64,000 nt of DNA from Chitinophagaceae bacterium (lineage in GTDB: Bacteria; Bacteroidota; Bacteroidia; Chitinophagales; Chitinophagaceae). This document shows, piece by piece, positions 7,425 through 25,507 of this stretch (the first letter of the stretch is position 1; each line of letters starts with the position of its first letter). Made by a program: the position numbers and the translations under genes. The stretch covers positions 74,233 through 138,232 of the forward strand of contig JANNRE010000018.1 in assembly GCA_031401115.1 (NCBI GenBank), read 5' to 3'. A model generated the notes under the pieces. It searched no databases. It saw only the letters and a program-made list of their open reading frames with translations, and had not been told where the DNA came from.

Positions 7425-8173
7425 TTATTTTTGATTTGTTCCTTGCGCAGGAATATTGAATAAAGCAGCCACTTCTTTGTAGCTCATTGCTTTAATTTGG
7501 TTCACATTATAACCTGCCGCAGGGCCGGTTGTAAAACGACCACCTGAAACTAAACCAGGAACAATAACATATCTTAAAAATCCACTTACTGTTACAGTTG
7601 AAATACCAGTTGATAAATTAGCAACGGTAATAATAACACGGTTTACAGCACCCACAAAACCCCAACTAAAGGTACCTGCAATACCAAATGGAGAACCGGA
7701 GAAATCATAAGGTAAAGAAACAACTGCAGAAGCATTAGCAGGTGTAGGAGTAATTGTTCCGCTGTTTAAACCATACACTAATAATATACCATTGTTTAAA
7801 ACAGCTTGAGTTAAACTCGGAGCAGGCACATTGGCTCTTGTTACTCTGTTTTGCAAGCCCATTACAGTATCACCGGCAACGTAGGGATAATTAATGTATC
7901 CAGCTGAGGCCGAACCAACTCTAAACCATGCAGAATAAATTACGTTTGCATTTTGCCCAGCCGGACCTTGAATACCCTGAACACCCTGAATTCCTTGAGG
8001 GCCTTGCGGACCAACAGGGCCAGTGGGGCCAATAATACCTTGTGCGCGCCGATAGATCCTACCGGACCTTGAATGCCTTGAGGGCCTACTGCACCAGTAT
8101 CGCCCTTTTTGCAGGCATTAAAAGCTATTGCCATAAATAACAGCAAAGTGGTGTTGTAAATAATTTTTTTCAT
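7425..8173 (-). pseudogene. Collagen-like (Gly-X-Y) lipoprotein split by a 2-nt frameshift
   Basis: ORF 7940-8173 has a lipobox (AFNA-C) and G-X-Y repeats. Removing 2 nt in the GCGCGC run at 8044-8049 continues G-X-Y (AQGIIGPTGPVGPQGPQGIQG...NANVIYSAW) in frame with ORF 7425-7862, giving about 248 aa. Confidence 0.85.
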
Positions 8174-8230
8174 AATACTTTGTTTTTGGTTAAAAAGTTA
8201 TTGAGAATATTGAAGGTAAGGAATTGAAAT

Positions 8231-8255
8231 AAAAAAAACGCCTATTGGGCGTTTT
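8231..8255 (-). terminator. Intrinsic terminator downstream of lolA
   Basis: AAAACGCC-tattg-GGCGTTTT hairpin with an 8-T tail on the minus strand. Confidence 0.7.
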
Positions 8256-8273
8256 GAATATTTTTTGTTTTAC

Positions 8274-8939
8274 TTACCGCAAATCAATAACATCTACACC
8301 GGGGTATTTCTTTTTGTCAAATACAAATTGTGCATCCGTTAAAGCAGCATTCGATTTCAGGGAGGCAACAGTATAAGTATATCGGTTGCCGGCTTTTTCC
8401 ATCACCTTGGTTCGGTAAATGGTTTGTGTTGCTTTATCAATCCATACATATACTTTAAAGAAAGGTTTCGATTTATCATAAGGAGTTAATTCAATTTCCT
8501 GTAAAGTGCGACTTCCTTCTTTCTTTTCACCATTGAGTTTATACAAAAAATCTTTATCGTAAAAATTTGTAAATAGTTTTTGTGGTGTGATGGTGTTTTG
8601 CCCGGGATCGAATTTAGAAAGTGTTACTTCATTTGCACCTTTATCGTAAGTCCAGATATTCAATCCATCGCAAAAAATATCTTGTGCAGCTACTAAGGTT
8701 ACACGGTATTTATTTCCTTTCATAAACAAAGTACCCTTCTTAGTTCCTTGTACTTTGCCTTTTGCATCTTCAGTTGTAAAAGAAAACGTTGCTTGTACAC
8801 CTTTGTAGGTTTTAAACTTGGCACTTACAGCATCTAATATTTTTTTTGCATTGGGGTCACTTTGAGTGGCTGGTTTTGTTTGAGCAAAAGAGTTGCATAC
8901 AATCAAAACAAAAAGCAAAGAGGATACACTTTTTTTCAT
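8274..8939 (-). CDS. lolA: Outer-membrane lipoprotein carrier protein LolA
   Basis: Signal peptide, KGNKYR, DG.NIWTYD..ANEV, FDKKKYPGV..IDLR; directly downstream of ftsK. Start set at MKKSV (8939). Confidence 0.85.
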   Translation of the reverse strand: MKKSVSSLLFVLIVCNSFAQTKPATQSDPNAKKILDAVSAKFKTYKGVQATFSFTTEDAKGKVQGTKKGTLFMKGNKYRVTLVAAQDIFCDGLNIWTYDKGANEVTLSKFDPGQNTITPQKLFTNFYDKDFLYKLNGEKKEGSRTLQEIELTPYDKSKPFFKVYVWIDKATQTIYRTKVMEKAGNRYTYTVASLKSNAALTDAQFVFDKKKYPGVDVIDLR

Positions 8940-16555: not shown

Positions 16556-16827
16556 GCTTTTAAAGGATAAAAATACAAGGAATACAGGTTTTTGTTACAG
16601 GCTGGGTTTTTATGGCATCGGTTTTTGGGGCCTGCCCGTTCGTAGCTTTAGCGAAGATGGGTCACTCATTTATACATCGTACCTTTTTTATGAGCCGGGG
16701 CTTTATACCAGGTTGAATGCTACGGTGTACTTTTCTGTTCAATTGCAGGGATACAGTAATGCTCACAAACTTCAGCTAATACAACAAACATCATTAGTAC
16801 GTTATTGCTTACGAATAAGCTTTAGAA

Positions 16828-16857
16828 CGTCTTTGCAAGCTTTGCTGTTTGGCGAAG
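16828..16857 (-). repeat. 30-bp REP-like element, inverted copy of 25348-25377
   Basis: Reverse complement CTTCGCCAAACAGCAAAGCTTGCAAAGACG matches CTTCGCCAAACAACAAGGCTCGCAAAGACG at 27/30. Confidence 0.75.
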
Positions 16858-17026
16858 AAATCTGAGAAACTGGTGGGTGAATACTTCAAGCTTGGCGAAA
16901 TGTATGAATTGTATAATAAATTTTTAGAATTGTACAAGTATAGCTAAGAAATGAAATCCATCTTTACTATGTATGATTTTCATACGTAGGCTATAAAAAT
17001 GAATAACAGTTTTTGCGTATTGCTAT

Positions 17027-18477: not shown

Positions 18478-20391
18478 ATGGGTAAAACAATTAAACCAAA
18501 TGAGGAGAAATTAAATAATGCGTATAAAGAGCTTGTTTTTCAAAATGAAGAAAAAGAAAAACGGGCAGCAGAATTAATCATTGCAAATAAAGAACTGACT
18601 TTTCAAAACGAAGAAAAAGAAAAACGGGCAGCAGAATTAATCATTGCCAATAAAGAACTTGCATTTCAAAATGAAGAAAAGGAAAAGCGGGCAGCAGAAT
18701 TAATTATTGCAAATAAAGAACTTGTCTTTCAAAACGAAGAGAAAGAAAAACGTGCAGCAGAGTTAATCATTGCTAACTATGCCCGTAGTTTAATTGAAGC
18801 AAGTTTAGATCCCCTTGTTACCATCAGTGCCGCTGGAAAAATTTTAGATGTGAATGAGGCATCAATAAAAGTTACCGGTGTTGAGCGTGAAAAATTAATT
18901 GATACAGACTTCTCCAATTATTTTACAGAACCTAAAAAAGCACAGGAGGGTTATCGTCAGGTTTTTGAGAAAGGTTTTGTAGCAGATTATCCGTTAACCA
19001 TAAAACATAAAAATGGAAATTTGACAGATGTTTTATACAATGCTTCAGTTTATAAAGATGATAAAGGAAATGTTCTTGGAGTTTTTGCAGCAGCACGGGA
19101 TATTACTGAGCAAAAACAATCTTCACAATATGCCCGTAGTTTAATTGAAGCAAGTTTAGACCCCCTTGTTACCATCAGTGCAACAGGAAAGATTTTAGAT
19201 GTAAATGAAGCATCAATAAAAGTTACCGGTGTTGATCGTGAAAAATTAATTGATACAGACTTCTCCAATTATTTTACAGAACCTAAAAAAGCACAGGAGG
19301 GTTATCGTCAGGTTTTTGAAAAAGGTTTTGTAGCAGATTATCCGTTAACCATAAAACATAAAAATGGAAATCTTACAGATGTTTTATACAATGCTTCAGT
19401 TTATAAAGATGATAAAGGAAATGTTCTTGGAGTTTTTGCAGCAGCACGGGATGTAACAGAGCAAAAATGGGCCAAAGATTTACGAATTGCTAACAAAGAA
19501 CTGGCTTTTCAAAATGAAGAAAAAGAAAAAAGAGCAGCAGAATTAATTATTGCGAATAAAGAACTGGCTTTTCAAAATGAAGAAAAAGAAAAAAGAGCAG
19601 CAGAATTAATTATTGCCAACAAAGAACTGGCTTTTCAAAATGAAGAAAAAGAAAAACGGGCAGCAGAATTAATTATTGCCAATAAAGAGCTACTGGCATT
19701 CACTTATATTTCAAGCCACGATTTACAGGAGCCACTAAGAAAAATACAAACCTTTGTTACCATTATTTTAGAATATGAAAGTGAAAACCTGTCTGATAAA
19801 GGGAAATATAATTTTCAGCGCATGCAATTAGCCGCTGGCAGAATGCAACAATTGATTGATGATCTGCTAGCCTTCTCCCGTATTAATAGCTCCGATCATC
19901 AATTTGAGCCTACAGACCTAAACACCATTATTGAAGAAGTAAAAAATGAATTAAGAGATACCATCCTTGAAAAAAAAGCTATTCTTGAATTCTCCGAACT
20001 CTGCTCTGCCAATATTATTGTTTTTCAGTTTCGCCAATTAATGTACAACCTTGTAAGCAACGCACTTAAATTTTCAAACCCCGGCATTCCATCTCATATC
20101 ATCATAACTGCCAGCGTTTCAGATGGAAGTGCTTTAAATAACAAGGAGCTTTCTCCAGAAAAAAATTATTGCCACATTATGGTTAAAGATAATGGCATCG
20201 GTTTTGAACCACATTTTAACGAACGCATTTTTGGTGTATTTCAAAAACTTCATGGCAAAGAAGAATATGCTGGCACAGGTATTGGACTTGCTATTGTAAA
20301 AAAAATAGTAGAAAATCACAGAGGAGTTATTACGGCAACTGCTGAATTAAATAAAGGAGCTCAATTTGATATTTACATTCCTGCAAAATAA
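18478..20391 (+). CDS. Cytoplasmic PAS-domain histidine kinase with 21-aa coiled-coil tandem repeats
   Basis: 4 repeats, 2 PAS domains, 3 repeats, H-box SHDLQEPLRKI, NLVSNALKF, DNGIGF, GTGIGL; no TM segment. Confidence 0.93.
   Translation: MGKTIKPNEEKLNNAYKELVFQNEEKEKRAAELIIANKELTFQNEEKEKRAAELIIANKELAFQNEEKEKRAAELIIANKELVFQNEEKEKRAAELIIANYARSLIEASLDPLVTISAAGKILDVNEASIKVTGVEREKLIDTDFSNYFTEPKKAQEGYRQVFEKGFVADYPLTIKHKNGNLTDVLYNASVYKDDKGNVLGVFAAARDITEQKQSSQYARSLIEASLDPLVTISATGKILDVNEASIKVTGVDREKLIDTDFSNYFTEPKKAQEGYRQVFEKGFVADYPLTIKHKNGNLTDVLYNASVYKDDKGNVLGVFAAARDVTEQKWAKDLRIANKELAFQNEEKEKRAAELIIANKELAFQNEEKEKRAAELIIANKELAFQNEEKEKRAAELIIANKELLAFTYISSHDLQEPLRKIQTFVTIILEYESENLSDKGKYNFQRMQLAAGRMQQLIDDLLAFSRINSSDHQFEPTDLNTIIEEVKNELRDTILEKKAILEFSELCSANIIVFQFRQLMYNLVSNALKFSNPGIPSHIIITASVSDGSALNNKELSPEKNYCHIMVKDNGIGFEPHFNERIFGVFQKLHGKEEYAGTGIGLAIVKKIVENHRGVITATAELNKGAQFDIYIPAK
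18526..18777 (+). repeat. 4 x 63-bp in-frame tandem repeat (KELxFQNEEKEKRAAELIIAN)
   Basis: Visible in DNA and protein; exactly 252 bp. Confidence 0.95.
18778..19452 (+). repeat. Near-identical internal duplication of the PAS domain (351-bp period)
   Basis: 18778-19101 is repeated at 19129-19452 with only scattered substitutions (YARSLIEASLDPLVTIS...VFAAARD twice). Confidence 0.95.
19495..19683 (+). repeat. 3 x 63-bp in-frame tandem repeat (KELAFQNEEKEKRAAELIIAN)
   Basis: 189 bp directly before the HisKA helix. Confidence 0.95.
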
Positions 20392-20492: not shown

Positions 20493-21497
20493 TCAGTAAC
20501 AAAACCATTGCCATAAGGAAGCGCCAATAAAACCGGCTATCCGTTTTTTTACTTCCTCCTGTGCATCAAAAACTTTCATTGCCTCCATCAATTCAGAAAT
20601 TACTACATCACTTAACTGTACTGCGGTATTCAACTCTTTCAATTTTAATGTAAGCACCTCTTTGGAAGTAATTCCTGAAACCTCAGCATCAGTTGTTAAC
20701 AACCAATTCCATTTTTGTACGTCTACATCATCCCACAAATCCCGGGCATCATCAATCAACCAATAACAATGCCCCATTGCTTTTCCAAATTGCTGCAAAT
20801 AAGAAAGTAAAGGTTCCTGAATGTTGCCACTAAGTCCTGCATAAACTGCCATCACCCTGAAAGGTTCAGCCGATTTTAAATACAAAGCTTGAGTAATGGT
20901 TTTCAAATCTGCATGTTTATAAATTTTACTTTCTGCATGCAGAAGTTCCGCCTCCATCATTGTCTTCATTGCCTTTTCAATTTCAACAGAGCCAAGTGTT
21001 TTTACATCTTTAAAAACAGAAGCGGCCAATAAGCTGAGTAACTGTACGGCAGGGTTTATTGATTCAATTGATTTATACGGAGCAGAAAAAAAAGTTTGAA
21101 ACACCGGCAATGAACGAACAAGCTCCTGCCCGTTGAGTTCATCGCATATATAATCAAACAAACTGATACCTAAGTTAAAACGGCCGCACCAATCAGCTAC
21201 GTTCAATGTTGTTTCTTTTGAAAGACCTGATAATTCAGCCAACAACTCACCTGTTACTTTTCCAAACCCATAAACTGATTTGAGCTGATTATAAGGGATA
21301 CCGCTTTCGTTTGCCATATCCGTTTCAAGAAATGAAACGTTTTGCAAGTGATGTTCCCTAGCATCAACATAAGCAGCAGTATAAAGTTGCGGATGCGGCA
21401 ACCCCGCTGCCTGCCACCGCTCAAAAAAAACCTGTTGAAAATGTTGATGCCAATCCATTTGTGAAAAAAAAGAATTTAGCTGATGATCCGCACCCAT
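20493..21497 (-). CDS. Class I isoprenoid synthase-fold protein (trans-prenyltransferase / terpene synthase-like)
   Basis: Degenerate first motif LFDYICDE, KT-like YLKSAEPF, and intact second motif GHCYWLIDDARDLWDD (DDxxD). Confidence 0.6.
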   Translation of the reverse strand: MGADHQLNSFFSQMDWHQHFQQVFFERWQAAGLPHPQLYTAAYVDAREHHLQNVSFLETDMANESGIPYNQLKSVYGFGKVTGELLAELSGLSKETTLNVADWCGRFNLGISLFDYICDELNGQELVRSLPVFQTFFSAPYKSIESINPAVQLLSLLAASVFKDVKTLGSVEIEKAMKTMMEAELLHAESKIYKHADLKTITQALYLKSAEPFRVMAVYAGLSGNIQEPLLSYLQQFGKAMGHCYWLIDDARDLWDDVDVQKWNWLLTTDAEVSGITSKEVLTLKLKELNTAVQLSDVVISELMEAMKVFDAQEEVKKRIAGFIGASLWQWFCY

Positions 21498-22504
21498 CGA
21501 TTGAGTGCGTAACAGGCAATAGCAGTAGTGAACAAACCCTGTTCATCACAAATAAATGAATTGCCGCCGCCGTTCATATTGTTCCAATCGGTGATAGTTT
21601 CAGGATCCATGATAAAAGGTGCAGGTATGCGAAGCAAATCATCGCCCTGCCAGCTACCATCTTCATTTTGATGCTGCAACAAAATAATGGCACAACGCTC
21701 TGCTTCTGCTTCAGCATTTGAAAGAGATTTGTACAATTCCAAAGCCAGTGCTGTTGCAAATGAGTTATAAGTACCGGAACCGTCTAATGAAAAACCTCCT
21801 TCTTCAAGTTGCCTTTTAGCAAGTGTCTGTTTCAGCAATTGCTGATGAACTGAAGAACCTTCTTTTTGTAAAAAATGTAAAGTGCGAAAGAGAAGAGCAA
21901 TTGTATAAAACTTACTGCGCCACCAATAGGCAGGCAGTAATCCTTCTGTTGTTTGCAATTGCAGCAGTTGTTCAATAACTCCATCCGCATTTGAATGATG
22001 AGGATCAGAAAGAAGAGCGGCGGCAGTTACATCAGCATGGGCAGACGTCCATCCTGCAATTAGCTGCGGATCGTTTGCACCGATAAAAGCAAGAATGCCC
22101 GAATCTGCACGATACGTTGAAATACCATTGTTTGCAAAATGGCTCCATAAAAAATGTTCACTTTGTTTTTGCAGATCTGCATTGAAATCTTTGTTGCCCG
22201 TTAATGCCATCCTGCACCATGAAGTTGAATCAGCATCGGGAGGTACAAGAGTACTGTAGGACCATCCCCCCGTTGCATGTTGTGCAGCTAACAAAAAATT
22301 TTGTGCCTGCTGCAGCCAATTTTCATCTGTTGAAAATTCCCTTAGATGTGCTGTTACAAAGCCCGTAACCCAAACATCAGATTGGCCTGCAAGAGTTGGA
22401 AAACCTTTCCAATGACCGTTATGCTGCAAAGAAAGAAGATAATATTTTCCCCGCTCAACAGCAGTTTGTATTGCAGCGTGGTTTTTGATGAAATGCTGAT
22501 TCAT
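21476..22504 (-). CDS. Prenyltransferase/squalene-cyclase repeat protein, single-domain class II terpene cyclase-like
   Basis: Five QW-like repeats (QHNGHW, QHATGGW, QTTEG, QLEEGGF, QNEDGSW) and PDADST at the DxDD position. Start set at MNQHF (22504), about 342 aa. Confidence 0.7.
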   Translation of the reverse strand: MNQHFIKNHAAIQTAVERGKYYLLSLQHNGHWKGFPTLAGQSDVWVTGFVTAHLREFSTDENWLQQAQNFLLAAQHATGGWSYSTLVPPDADSTSWCRMALTGNKDFNADLQKQSEHFLWSHFANNGISTYRADSGILAFIGANDPQLIAGWTSAHADVTAAALLSDPHHSNADGVIEQLLQLQTTEGLLPAYWWRSKFYTIALLFRTLHFLQKEGSSVHQQLLKQTLAKRQLEEGGFSLDGSGTYNSFATALALELYKSLSNAEAEAERCAIILLQHQNEDGSWQGDDLLRIPAPFIMDPETITDWNNMNGGGNSFICDEQGLFTTAIACYALNRWVRIIS

Positions 22505-22798
22505 GTGTAATAATAAATGTAAATCATAAATAGTTGTACAAATAGTTGTTGCAATCAATTATTTGGATTGTGAAAGTATTTTGCTATTTTACACAAAAAA
22601 TCAGTAACAGCGATCTCCGTTTGAAGAACAATCTCTGTTTAACCTGTTCATTTGAATTTTGATTTTTTACACCAGCCAATCCTTTTTCTGAAAAGCCAAA
22701 ACAACAACCGGTGACAGTACTCGGCAAAGTAAATTATTTTTATATTTTTAAAATAAGCGTTTCAGACATCTACATTTTATAACCAAAAACTTACAACT

Positions 22799-23164
22799 AT
22801 GGGTGATATCATCATCACAATTACAGGCAGTAACCCAACCACAGGTGCTTTAACATTATCAGATTCGGGCACTACCAATGCACATCAGGGCGATCAGGTA
22901 ACATGGGTTATCGGCCCCGGCTCAGGCGTGGCCGCTATTACAGGCATTGTGGAAAAACCAAACTCTTCTGATGTATTCAGCCCCGACCCTGCTCAATTGC
23001 CAAACAGTACCAGCTGGGAGGGTACCATTAACCAGACTATTCCAATCGGAACTGAGGAAGCTTACTCCATCAACTGGACAGTTGCCAACTCAGGTTGGTT
23101 AAACAATGGAGGAGGTGCAGCAAAAACCTTTGATCCGATCATCAGAATTCAACCAAAACAATAA
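22799..23164 (+). CDS. Small beta-rich hypothetical protein (GDQVTWV...FDPIIRI), loosely AidA/PixA- or cupredoxin-like
   Basis: Clean 121-aa ORF with an A-rich leader and no signal peptide; stops 2 nt before the cyclase ATG. Confidence 0.75.
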   Translation: MGDIIITITGSNPTTGALTLSDSGTTNAHQGDQVTWVIGPGSGVAAITGIVEKPNSSDVFSPDPAQLPNSTSWEGTINQTIPIGTEEAYSINWTVANSGWLNNGGGAAKTFDPIIRIQPKQ

Positions 23165-23166
23165 AA

Positions 23167-24951
23167 ATGTTGTTGAAAAGAAAAGCCTGTTGCTTTGTAA
23201 TAGGCTTTTTTTATTTTATTGCCAACCATCTTTCGGCCCAGGACCAGCGAATTGCTGATAGCTTGTATAAAATCTACAAATCAGATACTTCATCAGGTTT
23301 GGTAAAATTAGAATTATTAAGCGACCTCTCCTTTAATGAAATTAAAGATTATAAACAGGGACTGCACTACGCAGAAGAATTGATAAAGCTATCTCTTGCA
23401 GCAAACAACAATTCTTACTTATCACAGGGTTACTTTCAAAAAGGCAGTACAAAAAGATTATTAGGAGATCTGGATGATGCAGTAGATGCTTTTTTCAAAT
23501 GCGCCGAAGTAGCAAAAAAAAACAAATTGGTTTCTTTGGAAGGAAGTGCCTATGGCTCCATTGCAGATATTTATGCCATCTCCAACAATCATAAAAATGC
23601 AATGCTATATTACCGAAAAGCGATTTACAGTTTGAGAAGATCGAACGACTCAGTTGCCCTTGCATCGGTTATTTTAAATGCAGGAGATGCATTTCTAAAA
23701 AGCAAGCTTTTCGATTCCGCTTATTCATATTTTAAAGAATCCAAAAAAATATTTGAGAACCTCAACTACCAAATGGGAGTTGGTTACAGTTTGGGAAATA
23801 TCGGTATGGTATATGCTAACACCGGCAATAAACAACTGGCAGAAAAAAACATTAATGATGCTACTAAGATATTGGAAGATGCACAAGACTATTATCCTAT
23901 TTGTGTTTATCTCATTTCCATGTGCAATATCTATGTAGAAAAAGGTGATCAGCAAACGGCACTCAATTATGCACTCCGCAGTCTTCAACTGGCGCTCAAT
24001 TATGATTTGAAAGAACAAATAAGTGATGCCAATCTTAAACTTTCACAACTCTATGAAAAAGCAGGCAATCAAAAATTGTCCCTGATGTATTATAAAAATC
24101 ACATCGCATTCAGGGATAGTGTAAACAATATTACATCTGTTCAAAAAATGGCCGACCTGCGTACCGACTATGAAGTATCTCAAAAACAAATTGAAGTGGA
24201 TTTGCTCAATCAGCAAAAACGCAACCAGCGTATCATCCTCTTTTCAATGTATATCATTCTTGGATTAACAGTTATCATTCTGGGCACTTTGTATTGGTAT
24301 TACAGAAGTATTTCAAGAGAAAAGAAACGATCAGAAAGTTTGCTGCTCAACATCCTTCCTGCAGAAACAGCTCATGAACTGAAACAGAAAGGAAGTGTGG
24401 AAGCAGTGAAGTTTGATGAAGTAACTGTTTTATTTACTGATTTTGTTTCGTTTTCAAAGTACGCCGAGCATATTGAACCGGTGCAATTGGTAAAGAGTAT
24501 TGATTTTTATTTTAAAGGGTTTGATGAGATCACTACAAAGTACGGGCTTGAAAAAATTAAAACTATCGGCGACTCTTATATGTGTGCCTGCGGTTTACCA
24601 ACGCCCAATCCTGCCCATGCCGCAAATGCAATAATGGCTGCACGTGAAATGATTGAGCTGGTAAGCAGTTCTTTACATGCAGATGATGGCCTTAACCATT
24701 TCGACATCAGAATAGGAATACACACTGGGCCCGTGGTGGCGGGTATTGTAGGTATCAAAAAATGGCAATATGATATTTGGGGCGACTCGGTAAATATTGC
24801 ATCGAGAATGGAATCAAAGTCGGAGCCCGGAAGAATTAACATGTCTGAAACTACTTACAGCATCATAAAAGATCAATTTGCATGTGAGTACCGTGGCGAA
24901 ATTGAAGTAAAGAACAGAGGTCTGTTGAAAATGTATTTTTTAAAAAGCTGA
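23167..24951 (+). CDS. TPR-sensor, single-TM class III adenylate cyclase
   Basis: Signal peptide, TPR helices and TM at ~aa 356-378. Catalytic motifs VLFTDFVSFS, EKIKTIGDSYM and YDIWGDSVNIASRMES; the K and D specificity residues point to ATP. Confidence 0.92.
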   Translation: MLLKRKACCFVIGFFYFIANHLSAQDQRIADSLYKIYKSDTSSGLVKLELLSDLSFNEIKDYKQGLHYAEELIKLSLAANNNSYLSQGYFQKGSTKRLLGDLDDAVDAFFKCAEVAKKNKLVSLEGSAYGSIADIYAISNNHKNAMLYYRKAIYSLRRSNDSVALASVILNAGDAFLKSKLFDSAYSYFKESKKIFENLNYQMGVGYSLGNIGMVYANTGNKQLAEKNINDATKILEDAQDYYPICVYLISMCNIYVEKGDQQTALNYALRSLQLALNYDLKEQISDANLKLSQLYEKAGNQKLSLMYYKNHIAFRDSVNNITSVQKMADLRTDYEVSQKQIEVDLLNQQKRNQRIILFSMYIILGLTVIILGTLYWYYRSISREKKRSESLLLNILPAETAHELKQKGSVEAVKFDEVTVLFTDFVSFSKYAEHIEPVQLVKSIDFYFKGFDEITTKYGLEKIKTIGDSYMCACGLPTPNPAHAANAIMAAREMIELVSSSLHADDGLNHFDIRIGIHTGPVVAGIVGIKKWQYDIWGDSVNIASRMESKSEPGRINMSETTYSIIKDQFACEYRGEIEVKNRGLLKMYFLKS

Positions 24952-25339: not shown

Positions 25340-25347
25340 ATAGTTTG

Positions 25348-25377
25348 CTTCGCCAAACAACAAGGCTCGCAAAGACG
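25348..25377 (+). repeat. 30-bp REP-like element, inverted copy of 16828-16857
   Basis: 27/30 identity to the reverse complement of 16828-16857. Confidence 0.75.
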
Positions 25378-25507
25378 CTCTGATGATAATTTTCTTCTTT
25401 GCGTGCCATAATACGAGCTTGAATTACCAGAAACTTACATGGCGAAGCCCGTCCGACCTATACATACAGGCGGTCAATTTGTAAAAAAAAGGTTACTCTA
25501 ATTACTC

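Follow-up and report, generated by a model that had tools for sequence, protein, structure and literature searches.

A class II cyclase-like gene paired with a divergent trans-IDS-fold gene in a Chitinophagaceae genome: a candidate split prenyltransferase/cyclase module with tryptophan-bearing neighbours

The window analysed here, a 64,000-nt stretch of a Chitinophagaceae bacterium contig, carries two adjacent genes on its minus strand. Sequence comparison identifies the upstream one as a genuine homologue of the MstE-type monodomain class II cyclases, with its acid motif intact; sequence and predicted structure identify the downstream one (the partner) as a genuine class I isoprenoid-synthase fold whose metal-binding Asp motifs are intact. 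The reading tentatively favoured for the pair, at a little under an even chance, is by analogy: a split prenyltransferase/cyclase module following the logic of MstE and ChrPC, with a Trp of a protein encoded by a neighbouring gene as the acceptor. Positions referred to are those of the window, as follows.

20493..21458, minus strand: partner gene, trans-IDS fold, 321 aa from the conserved start (reading frame open to 21497)
20727..20753, minus strand: second Asp motif of the partner, D249-D250-A-R-D253-x-x-x-D257, SARM-like, with W246 before it; aligns with the SARM of 3ipi and 4jxy
20871..20876, minus strand: K208-S209 of the partner, counterpart of the trans-IDS "KT" diphosphate-binding motif; aligns with the KT of 3ipi (phmmer)
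21138..21155, minus strand: first Asp motif of the partner, D115-Y-I-C-D119-E120, a FARM-like DxxxDE at the C-terminal end of model helix 94-120
21476..22504, minus strand: cyclase-like gene, 342 aa from ATG, homologue of monodomain (beta-only) class II terpene cyclases
22223..22240, minus strand: PDADST acid motif, residues 89-94 of the cyclase-like protein; D92 is the counterpart of the general-acid Asp
22505..22798, no strand: divergent intergenic region between the enzyme pair and the operon of the small protein and TPR cyclase
22799..23164, plus strand: small beta-sandwich protein gene, leaderless, 121 aa; candidate acceptor of the modification
23084..23119, plus strand: Gly-rich surface loop, residues 96-107 of the small protein, ANSGWLNNGGGA (loop peptide TVANSGWLNNGGG); candidate prenylation site
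23096-23098, plus strand: codon of W100, the invariant Trp of this loop
23167..24951, plus strand: TPR adenylate/guanylate cyclase gene, 594 aa, signal peptide-TPR-TM-class III cyclase; co-transcribed with the small protein gene

On both enzymes Pfam, NCBIfam and PADLOC gave sub-threshold matches only, and their family assignment is therefore taken from PDB sequence matches and from the fold. For the cyclase-like protein the best solved-structure match (phmmer throughout) is PDB 6ij1, "Prenylcyclase" (E 1.3e-28), with residues 12-335 aligned to residues 10-338; residues 22-333 align with MstE 34-359 (6sbb-6sbg; E about 1e-26), and 8pak and 8paj match over the full length (E about 1e-19 and 6e-17). 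This end-to-end alignment with solved monodomain cyclases of 346-367 aa bears out an earlier sequence-only reading of this DNA, in which the ~342-aa upstream protein was taken to be a single (alpha/alpha)6 barrel. The five QW-like repeats described there are likewise found, three as canonical QxxxGxW/QxxGxW and two degenerate. So is PDADST with its middle Asp kept: it aligns with GDADTT of MstE and EDADST of 6IJ1, giving a general-acid motif of the DxD(S/T)T form instead of DxDD. A total of 150 homologues were found; across 31 of them D90, D92 and S93 are invariant, while A91 and T94 are at least 90% conserved. MstE itself works through a DxD motif (PMC12414744).

The same alignment of 31 homologues places the start of the cyclase-like protein at its ATG and not at a TTG further upstream (22558), which would give 360 aa. 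For the partner, the open reading frame as called (20493..21497, 334 aa) overlaps the cyclase-like gene by 22 nt, and this overlap had been reported as a feature of the pair. It is probably an artefact, since 32 of 32 aligned partner homologues start at the equivalent of Met14 (MDW...); the true start is then probably 21458, leaving a 17-nt gap after the TAA of the cyclase-like gene (21476-21478).

The class I isoprenoid-synthase fold proposed for the downstream protein is recovered in its AF2 model, which is all-alpha (pLDDT 90.2, pTM 0.90). The top 36 Foldseek matches are all trans-IDS (TM 0.47-0.63), with long-chain trans-polyprenyl-PP synthases best (0.55-0.63) and the Trp farnesyltransferase Ord1 among them (0.52-0.55); class I terpene cyclases stand far down the list (0.32-0.45; BcBOT2 0.32-0.38). 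By sequence, the partner matches PF00348 at E 2.5e-4 (20.8 bits, below the cut-off of 27), with DUF5685 as a second weak family match, and its clade is very small (90 relatives among 1.84 billion representatives).

The motifs named in the sequence-only reading (DDARD, a KT-like motif, here KS, and DYICD) are all present, and eight of their residues (D115, D119, E120, K208, S209, D249, D250 and D253) are invariant in 33 homologues; Y116, I117, C118, A251 and R252 fall outside this set, and D257 and W246 are at least 90% conserved. The only conserved basic residues are K208 and R106 (the latter at least 90%). Chain-elongation motifs are missing from the partner alignment (the first motif is not followed by RRG, nor the second by GK, and there is no GKRxR near the N-terminus), making it unlikely that the partner elongates chains with IPP. 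Two canonical polyprenyl synthases are present elsewhere in the genome; for this reason and for want of the IPP-binding motifs, the reading of the partner as a canonical polyprenyl synthase was rejected.

A trans-IDS fold that retains its Asp-rich motif and lacks the elongation apparatus is the combination that marks the tryptophan prenyltransferases, and it is what the partner has. A terpene cyclase would be expected to show DDxxD in helix D and NSE/DTE in helix H; the first motif of the partner is DxxxDE instead, while its second motif can be read as DTE-like, and its reaction might accordingly still be of the terpene-synthase kind. Directly upstream of the SARM, Trp prenyltransferases have a conserved Gln implicated in indole recognition (PMC13290415). 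In the partner consensus of 33 homologues, C-Y-W-L-I-D-D, this position is occupied by W246.

In all 30 testable loci the two enzyme genes lie next to each other, which answers in the affirmative the check on neighbourhood co-occurrence suggested earlier. These counts come from a GTDB-wide scan; a sample of 400 other genomes of the phylum, in which the partner was absent at E 1e-10 and the small protein gave one weak match, yielded no co-occurrence statistics because both are rare. There is also a natural fusion, P0289 (738 aa), in which an MstE-like cyclase makes up the N-terminal part and a domain resembling the partner the C-terminal part; the second-motif region of that domain reads F-W-V-T-D-D. 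A metagenome scan for the gene context of P0289 returned ordinary members of the pair only. A single cultured strain carrying the module, Muriicola jejuensis KCTC 22299, was identified.

The pair had also been described as having no tailoring genes adjacent. This is literally true, but it overlooks a conserved divergent gene pair (22799..24951) on the other strand. The resulting four-gene module, in which the enzyme pair diverges from a small protein and a periplasmic-TPR adenylate cyclase, occurs in 26 Bacteroidota loci including the window. A further 22 loci repeat the divergent arrangement, their spacers measuring 120-447 bp, and no conserved palindrome (CRP/FNR-like operator) was found in the divergent intergenic region across 23 loci. 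The TPR cyclase has a clear catalytic domain (Pfam Guanylate_cyc, E 1.5e-58) as well as TPR, and its orthologues, 55-86% identical, occupy the same position in related loci.

The small protein (163 homologues found) is modelled as a beta-sandwich (AF2 pLDDT 92.7). It is conserved along its whole length and folds as a domain, unlike a leader-core peptide. W100 in its Gly-rich loop is invariant, and G99 and G106 are at least 90% conserved; the pLDDT of the loop (78-85) is the lowest in the folded core, with only the last C-terminal residue of the protein scoring lower. The loop is present in 95 of 120 homologues and absent in 22 of 120. Five loop-less loci were examined, and each of them retains the TPR cyclase but has no enzyme pair; nor do the two loop-less paralogues in genome G017 have one. 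Presence of the loop thus tracks presence of the enzyme pair, a correlation amounting to about two evolutionary transitions, with the loop-less proteins forming one clade. In other genomes the small protein and TPR sensor do without the enzymes, which are therefore accessory to this pair.

Two other associations of the locus were considered and set aside. A histidine kinase and three response regulators lie downstream (an 8.5-kb block), but in the closest relative examined the four genes are in a different neighbourhood. A defence system is not indicated: the enzymes gave no credible PADLOC match, and the small protein gave only a weak one to MTase_II (E 0.028). Similarly, the match of the TPR cyclase to Pycsar cyclase models (E 1.7e-14) is no stronger than any class III cyclase would be expected to give.

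The enzyme pair has a second setting: at five loci, spread over four phyla (Acidobacteriota, Actinomycetota, Desulfobacterales and Bacteroidota), it follows a gene for an HExxH protein, 66-80% identical across phyla, whose C-terminus is PSPPxGGGGGW(I)-stop in five of five cases. Operons of this type have no adenylate cyclase gene. A BLASTP comparison of the small protein with the HExxH protein found no homology (E 0.45).

For the favoured reading, a split prenyltransferase/cyclase module, we infer which donor and acceptor are used, in what order the steps run and how they connect to cAMP signalling. Using DxxxDE, KS and DDxxD, the partner would hold an allylic polyprenyl diphosphate (FPP or GGPP, supplied by the two ordinary polyprenyl synthases of the genome) by its Mg2+-diphosphate, ionise this donor and pass the chain to an aromatic acceptor. 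D92 of the DADST motif would then protonate the terminal double bond, zipping the chain into rings. The acceptor would be a Trp of a ribosomally made protein from a neighbouring gene: in the window, W100 in the inserted Gly-rich loop of the 121-aa beta-sandwich protein, and in the HExxH operon type the GGGGGW(I) C-terminus. The assignment of these acceptors is one of guilt by association. By eye, neither the enzymes nor the small protein have an N-terminal signal-peptide-like hydrophobic stretch, which would place enzymes and candidate substrate together in the cytoplasm. The cyclised lipid might tether the small protein, or switch it, as a signalling partner of the periplasmic-TPR adenylate cyclase.

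The outcome in its fullest form would be protein lipidation, with a polycyclic, sterol- or hopanoid-like terpenoid on a Trp of a protein that is folded, cytoplasmic and the partner of a receptor adenylate cyclase, and on the GGGGGW(I) tail of the HExxH protein in the other operon type. This seems possible, if doubtful; a literature search found no precedent for the terpenylation of a folded bacterial protein. The conserved Trp-bearing neighbours nevertheless make a product bound to a protein or peptide at least as well indicated as a free terpenoid. The sequence-only reading had envisaged an isolated pair making a free terpenoid or meroterpenoid; the isolation is contradicted by the conserved modules with Trp-bearing members in which the pair is embedded, while the free terpenoid stays a serious rival.

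As such a rival, though a rather unlikely one, a free terpenoid pathway could take two forms. Either the class II cyclase turns GGPP or FPP into a bicyclic diphosphate that the partner ionises, in the manner of bacterial CPS/KS pairs, or the partner acts first, giving a linear or partly cyclised hydrocarbon that is left for the cyclase to finish, in the manner of YtpB/SqhC and sporulenol. In both enzymes the fold and the set of catalytic motifs are intact, the two are always found together, and the genome has a supply of prenyl-PP; moreover, the DDxxDxxxD of the partner also fits the terpene-synthase pattern (N/D)Dxx(S/T/D)xxx(E/D). The small protein and TPR adenylate cyclase could be sensing the lipid product as a signal or cofactor. 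The Trp loop, having been gained along with the enzymes, might in that case be a ligand-binding loop, its Trp binding the free terpenoid instead of being modified. Foldseek, however, places the partner with trans-IDS (TM about 0.6), far from BcBOT2, and no oxidases or other tailoring genes are conserved near the pair. The substrate of MstE, moreover, is a prenylated aromatic rather than a diphosphate (PMC12414744). A free terpenoid would also leave unexplained why a GGGGGW(I)-ending protein precedes the pair in all five loci of the second operon type.

An improbable alternative is a small-molecule meroterpenoid or indole-terpenoid, for which the partner would prenylate free Trp, like Ord1, or a benzoate, as in the MstE pathway, and the cyclase would cyclise the chain. 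The conserved Trp-bearing neighbours would again be unaccounted for, no genes for biosynthesis of an aromatic acceptor are conserved beside the pair, and the indole-recognition Gln of Ord1-type enzymes is a Trp in the partner, even though the free-Trp enzyme Ord1 is among its structural matches (PMC13290415) and MstE sets a precedent with its geranylgeranylated dihydroxybenzoate (PMC12414744). Finally, it is very improbable that both enzymes are catalytically dead and now serve as binding or regulatory subunits of an adenylate-cyclase signalling module: their Pfam and NCBIfam scores are far under the family cut-offs, and the small protein and TPR cyclase are more conserved than they are, but their presumed catalytic residues (D90/D92 and D115/D119/E120/K208/D249/D250/D253) are invariant across phyla, and the pair is also found without an adenylate cyclase gene in four phyla.

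The locus thus presents a split form of the cyclised-isoprenoid machinery, its transferase coming from a branch of the isoprenoid-synthase superfamily that is very rare and has no name. The pair is a fixed part of two distinct conserved gene modules, and the other proteins encoded in them are folded and have conserved tryptophans that stand out. The first account of ribosomal peptides modified with cyclised isoprenoids reportedly dates from 2024 and concerned fused enzymes; if the protein-lipidation reading is right, this terpenylated-RiPP chemistry would reach whole proteins and be tied to cyclic-nucleotide signalling. The candidate acceptor, if correctly chosen, would mean that bacteria can anchor proteins through a polycyclic lipid linked to Trp and that an adenylate cyclase system of the receptor type depends on this anchor. 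If it is wrong, the pair would be an uncharacterised minimal beta-plus-alpha terpenoid route, relevant to the origin of multi-domain terpene synthases.

Among known systems, bacterial class II/class I pairs include ent-CPS/KS, Rv3377c/Rv3378c and YtpB/SqhC. They resemble the present pair in that two genes, adjacent or cooperating, supply one enzyme that depends on protonation and one that depends on diphosphate ionisation, but their class II enzymes are beta-gamma didomain proteins with DxDD, and their class I partners have terpene-synthase or cis-prenyltransferase folds. Closer in form to the cyclase-like protein are 6IJ1 and the monodomain "squalene-hopene cyclase" entries 8PAK and 8PAJ, of about the same length and with an EDADST-type motif; a literature search found no useful papers describing 6IJ1, 8PAK, 8PAJ or DUF5685.

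MstE, the merosterolic acid synthase of Scytonema (PDB 6SBB-6SBG), reportedly described by Moosmann et al. (Nat Chem 2020), is likewise a single beta-domain of ~350 aa, alignable over its full length and with D-A-D-(S/T)-T instead of DxDD. Identity to the window protein is ~25-30%, estimated by eye from the alignment. [quoted passage not shown] It is the sole characterised member of its clade, whose reach into Bacteroidota is already known, and takes a prenylated aromatic, not a diphosphate, as its substrate, cyclising geranylgeranylated dihydroxybenzoate (PMC12414744). That substrate is a free prenylated benzoate, while in the window the cyclase has a soluble trans-IDS-fold partner and the pair has conserved protein neighbours, not genes for aromatic-acid biosynthesis.

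On the transferase side, ComQ, PalQ, Ord1 and the P domain of ChrPC are trans-IDS-like prenyltransferases that all have tryptophan as their target, free tryptophan in the case of the farnesyltransferase Ord1 (PMC13290415). The partner shares with ComQ, PalQ and Ord1 the all-alpha isoprenoid-synthase fold, which in those enzymes has been turned from chain elongation to aromatic prenylation, with Asp-rich motifs kept; it differs in having no Gln upstream of the second motif, and they in having no dedicated cyclase partner. The partner has no significant sequence match to any of the three. PalQ favours a C-terminal Trp (PMC10853753), a preference that recalls the GGGGGW(I) tail of the HExxH protein.

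The nearest parallel is with ChrPC and NctPC (Hubrich et al., Chem 2024, as summarised in PMC13290415): in that summary, each is a prenyltransferase fused to an MstE-like cyclase, and a prenyl group is put on a RiPP Trp and then cyclised. Ionisation or prenyl transfer followed by protonation-initiated cyclisation, the two-step route proposed as new in the sequence-only reading, remains the natural reading of the window pair, but going by the same summary a route of this kind is already published. Fusions matching the summarised description (P-C fusions) are present in Bacteroidota genomes; they adjoin an M50-like peptidase gene, and none was seen next to the window pair. The P domains of these Bacteroidota fusions and the partner have in common the motif order DxxxD(E/Q), KS, xxDDxxD, although hhalign of the partner family against six P domains gave only a weak match confined to the second motif region (probability 37%, E 3.6e-4). 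As far as the summary describes them, ChrPC and NctPC resemble the window pair in joining a prenyltransferase (trans-IDS-like in ChrPC) to an MstE-like cyclase with Trp as the target. On the same footing they differ from it in being fused, where the window has two genes, cyclase then transferase; in their transferase, that of the window belonging to a different, very small clade with Trp replacing Gln before the second Asp motif; and in their substrate, the candidate in the window being a folded 121-aa protein paired with an adenylate cyclase. By analogy with these summarised enzymes, the locus looks like a split, divergent variant of the ChrPC/NctPC kind, possibly acting on a folded protein.

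The two minus-strand ORFs picked out by the sequence-only reading were found at its positions, and two plus-strand genes diverge from them:

20493-21458, minus strand, partner (trans-IDS-fold protein; ORF open to 21497)
21476-22504, minus strand, cyclase (342 aa; full-length match to solved monodomain class II terpene cyclases)
22799-23164, plus strand, small protein (121 aa, beta-sandwich)
23167-24951, plus strand, TPR cyclase (adenylate/guanylate cyclase)

Pfam and NCBIfam squalene-cyclase models score below threshold against the upstream protein. In a search of solved structures, it aligned end to end with the “Prenylcyclase” 6IJ1 (E 1.3e-28), MstE (6SBB-6SBG; E about 1e-26), and 8PAK and 8PAJ (E 1e-19 and 6e-17), bearing out its description as a single-domain class II cyclase-like gene. 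Its PDADST (residues 89-94), which had been taken to stand where others have DxDD, with the middle Asp kept, does align with MstE GDADTT and 6IJ1 EDADST, and D90, D92, and S93 are invariant in 31 homologues. A DxD motif reportedly replaces DxDD in MstE (PMC12414744). A genome search found no class II cyclase in the window's genome besides this gene.

For the downstream protein, a class I isoprenoid-synthase fold had been proposed. Its AF2 model is confident and all helical (pLDDT 90.2, pTM 0.90), and structurally it comes closest to long-chain trans-polyprenyl diphosphate synthases (TM 0.55-0.63, 12-16% identity), in agreement with that assignment; the tryptophan farnesyltransferase Ord1 is also among the matches (TM 0.52-0.55), while class I terpene cyclases are poor ones (TM 0.32-0.45). 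The motifs noted by eye (DDARD, a KT-like motif, and DYICD as first motif) likewise hold up, their Asp/Glu/Lys/Ser positions being invariant in 33 homologues: D115/D119/E120 in DYICDE, K208/S209 in KS, and D249/D250/D253 in DDARD. Chain-elongating trans-IDS use RRG, GKRxR, and GK to bind IPP and diphosphate; in the homologue alignment, the partner family has neither RRG after the first motif, nor N-terminal GKRxR, nor GK after the second motif. Two ordinary polyprenyl synthases are present elsewhere in the window's genome. The family is tiny (90 relatives with E below 1e-3 among 1.84 billion representative proteins), and its named members are all “hypothetical” save one truncated 276-aa entry, labeled geranylgeranyl pyrophosphate synthase by JGI.

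In the alignment, all 32 partner homologues begin at the Met14 position, and in the window the cyclase stop (TAA, 21476-21478) is followed by a 17-nt T-rich spacer, then ATG GAT TGG; the 22-nt overlap originally read between the two genes is therefore probably an ORF-calling artefact. They are still tightly coupled; in Lutibacter, one base is common to the stop and the start. That the two genes might not co-occur elsewhere had been named as grounds for refutation, but a scan covering each GTDB species by one genome returned 31 loci, and the cyclase lies directly upstream of the partner in 30 of the 30 with flank present (tblastn, window proteins as queries). Most carriers are uncultured Chitinophagaceae, Flavobacteriaceae, and Saprospiraceae, and one is a cultured strain (Muriicola jejuensis KCTC 22299); MAGs assigned to Acidobacteriota, Actinomycetota, and Desulfobacterales have the pair too. 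A sample of 400 genomes from the window's phylum yielded no partner, and the pair is therefore rare and patchy. A single natural fusion was found (P0289, 738 aa), with an N-terminal MstE-like cyclase and a C-terminal partner-like domain that bears the same motifs.

The pair is found in two kinds of conserved module. Type 1 comprises 25 Bacteroidota loci besides the window. Here the pair is divergent from the gene of a leaderless ~120-aa protein; that of a signal-peptide–TPR–TM–class III cyclase protein begins no more than a few bases further on. The small protein (41-69% identity) and the TPR cyclase (61-86% in the class III cyclase domain) are better conserved than the two enzymes (41-51% and 33-44%; tblastn). 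In the closest relative examined, the same four genes have a different neighborhood, so that the unit is these four genes; the window's downstream histidine kinase and response regulators are outside it.

Several observations concern these neighborhoods. A 50-nt inverted repeat, 80% complementary (16814-16863 and 25342-25391), flanks an 8.5-kb block in which the four-gene module sits with a PAS histidine kinase and three response regulators; neither kinase nor regulators accompany the four genes in the closest relative examined. The translated kinase (18478-20391) carries near-identical 21-aa coiled-coil units, ELIIANKELAFQNEEKEKRAA, four before and three after a duplicated PAS module. At locus L058 (7001-9686), a loop-less small protein and TPR cyclase directly precede a gene with a PycTM domain (Pycsar effector), which hints at a membrane effector as the target of some receptor cyclases in this family.

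AF2 gives the small protein as a confident beta-sandwich (pLDDT 92.7) with a lower-confidence surface loop at residues 96-107. The loop reads ANSGWLNNGGGA in the window; most relatives have AGTGWLGKDGAG. W100, within it, is invariant. The Trp-containing loop is present in 95 of 120 database homologues; another 22 have a version that is 7-9 residues shorter and lacks the Trp. The enzyme pair is present at all 26 Trp-loop loci examined; at five of five loop-less loci the TPR cyclase is kept and the pair is absent, and in a sixth genome (G017) two loop-less paralogues lie beside a TPR–TM–histidine kinase, with no enzymes present. On the tree, all loop-less proteins fall into one clade and two changes suffice by parsimony, so this correlation goes back to one or two events rather than to many independent ones.

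The G017 paralogues (L056, 9053-12109), one with a hydrophobic C-terminal helix, lie upstream of the kinase, which shares 55% identity in its TPR region with the window TPR cyclase; the pairing of small protein with TPR sensor therefore extends beyond the cyclase output. The small protein's fold resembles SO1698 (3NJM, TM 0.62), a protein that self-cleaves between Asp and Pro close to the C-terminus, and also MakC/MakD (8RQY). It has an invariant Asp-Pro (D112-P113, window 23132-23137) 12 residues past the loop Trp; were it self-cleaved there, the Trp would end up near the new C-terminus. Two database paralogues, P0342 (Trp loop, 86% identical to the window protein) and P0390 (loop without Trp), are probably on one JGI contig (longest listed for both: 15,798 bases).

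Type 2 loci come from four phyla, and in them the pair closes a five-gene operon:

L018 (Terrimonas), 7427-8892, type 2 operon
L034 (Actinomycetota), 7474-8897, type 2 operon
L027 (Acidobacteria), L035 (Desulfobacterales), and L038 (Actinomycetota), further type 2 operons

These begin with two paralogous proteins of ~140 aa (motif GKWxGxLxDxxG), then a Cys-rich HExxH protein of ~190 aa, 66-80% identical between these phyla. Its tail reads ...FVDP(S/N)PPxGG(G/N/D)GGW(I)-stop at all five loci; the HExxH region weakly resembles eCIS core/DUF4157 and SprT-like models.

Of the possible readings, a split prenyltransferase/cyclase module is best supported, and we hold it tentatively. In it, the partner would bind and ionise FPP or GGPP and alkylate an aromatic acceptor, and the cyclase would then protonate the distal double bond via D92 and cyclise the chain. 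The likeliest acceptor would be the neighboring small protein's W100 or, in type 2 operons, the HExxH protein's terminal Trp. Judged by eye, the cyclase, partner, and small protein sequences have no N-terminal signal-peptide-like hydrophobic stretch. Speculatively, a polycyclic lipid attached to the small protein could hold it at the inner membrane beside the TPR cyclase catalytic domain.

The pair might instead release a free terpenoid that the signaling proteins sense, a credible though less likely alternative; a free meroterpenoid or indole terpenoid as its product seems improbable. Loss of catalysis in the pair is very hard to credit.

The characterised trans-IDS-like prenyltransferases (ComQ, PalQ, the ChrPC P domain, and Ord1) all act on tryptophan (PMC13290415), with PalQ preferring a C-terminal Trp (PMC10853753). 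ChrPC and NctPC are prenyltransferases fused to an MstE-like cyclase, which carry out C10-C20 prenylation of a peptide Trp first and chain cyclisation second (PMC13290415, summarising Hubrich et al., Chem 2024). Fusions matching this description occur among the sampled Bacteroidota genomes (L043-L048; G392, G013, G173, G123, G141, and G140). They are 570-740 aa long, with a trans-IDS-like domain and C-terminal MstE-like cyclase; five of six aligned P domains have an FQxxDD-type second motif, and several have a gene for an M50-like membrane metallopeptidase (HExGH) after them. These fusions are probably RiPP maturases of the ChrPC type. The partner shares with their P domains the motif order DxxxD(E/Q), KS, xxDDxxD, but profile-profile similarity is weak (probability 37%), and it has Trp where Trp prenyltransferases have the Gln before the second motif that is said to recognise indole (PMC13290415). 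The partner therefore lies outside the P-domain clade, and at best works like its enzymes. A prenyltransferase with a monodomain cyclase is a kind already known; to the extent of our searches, what is new is the split arrangement, the clade of the transferase, and both conserved modules, and possibly a folded-protein substrate.
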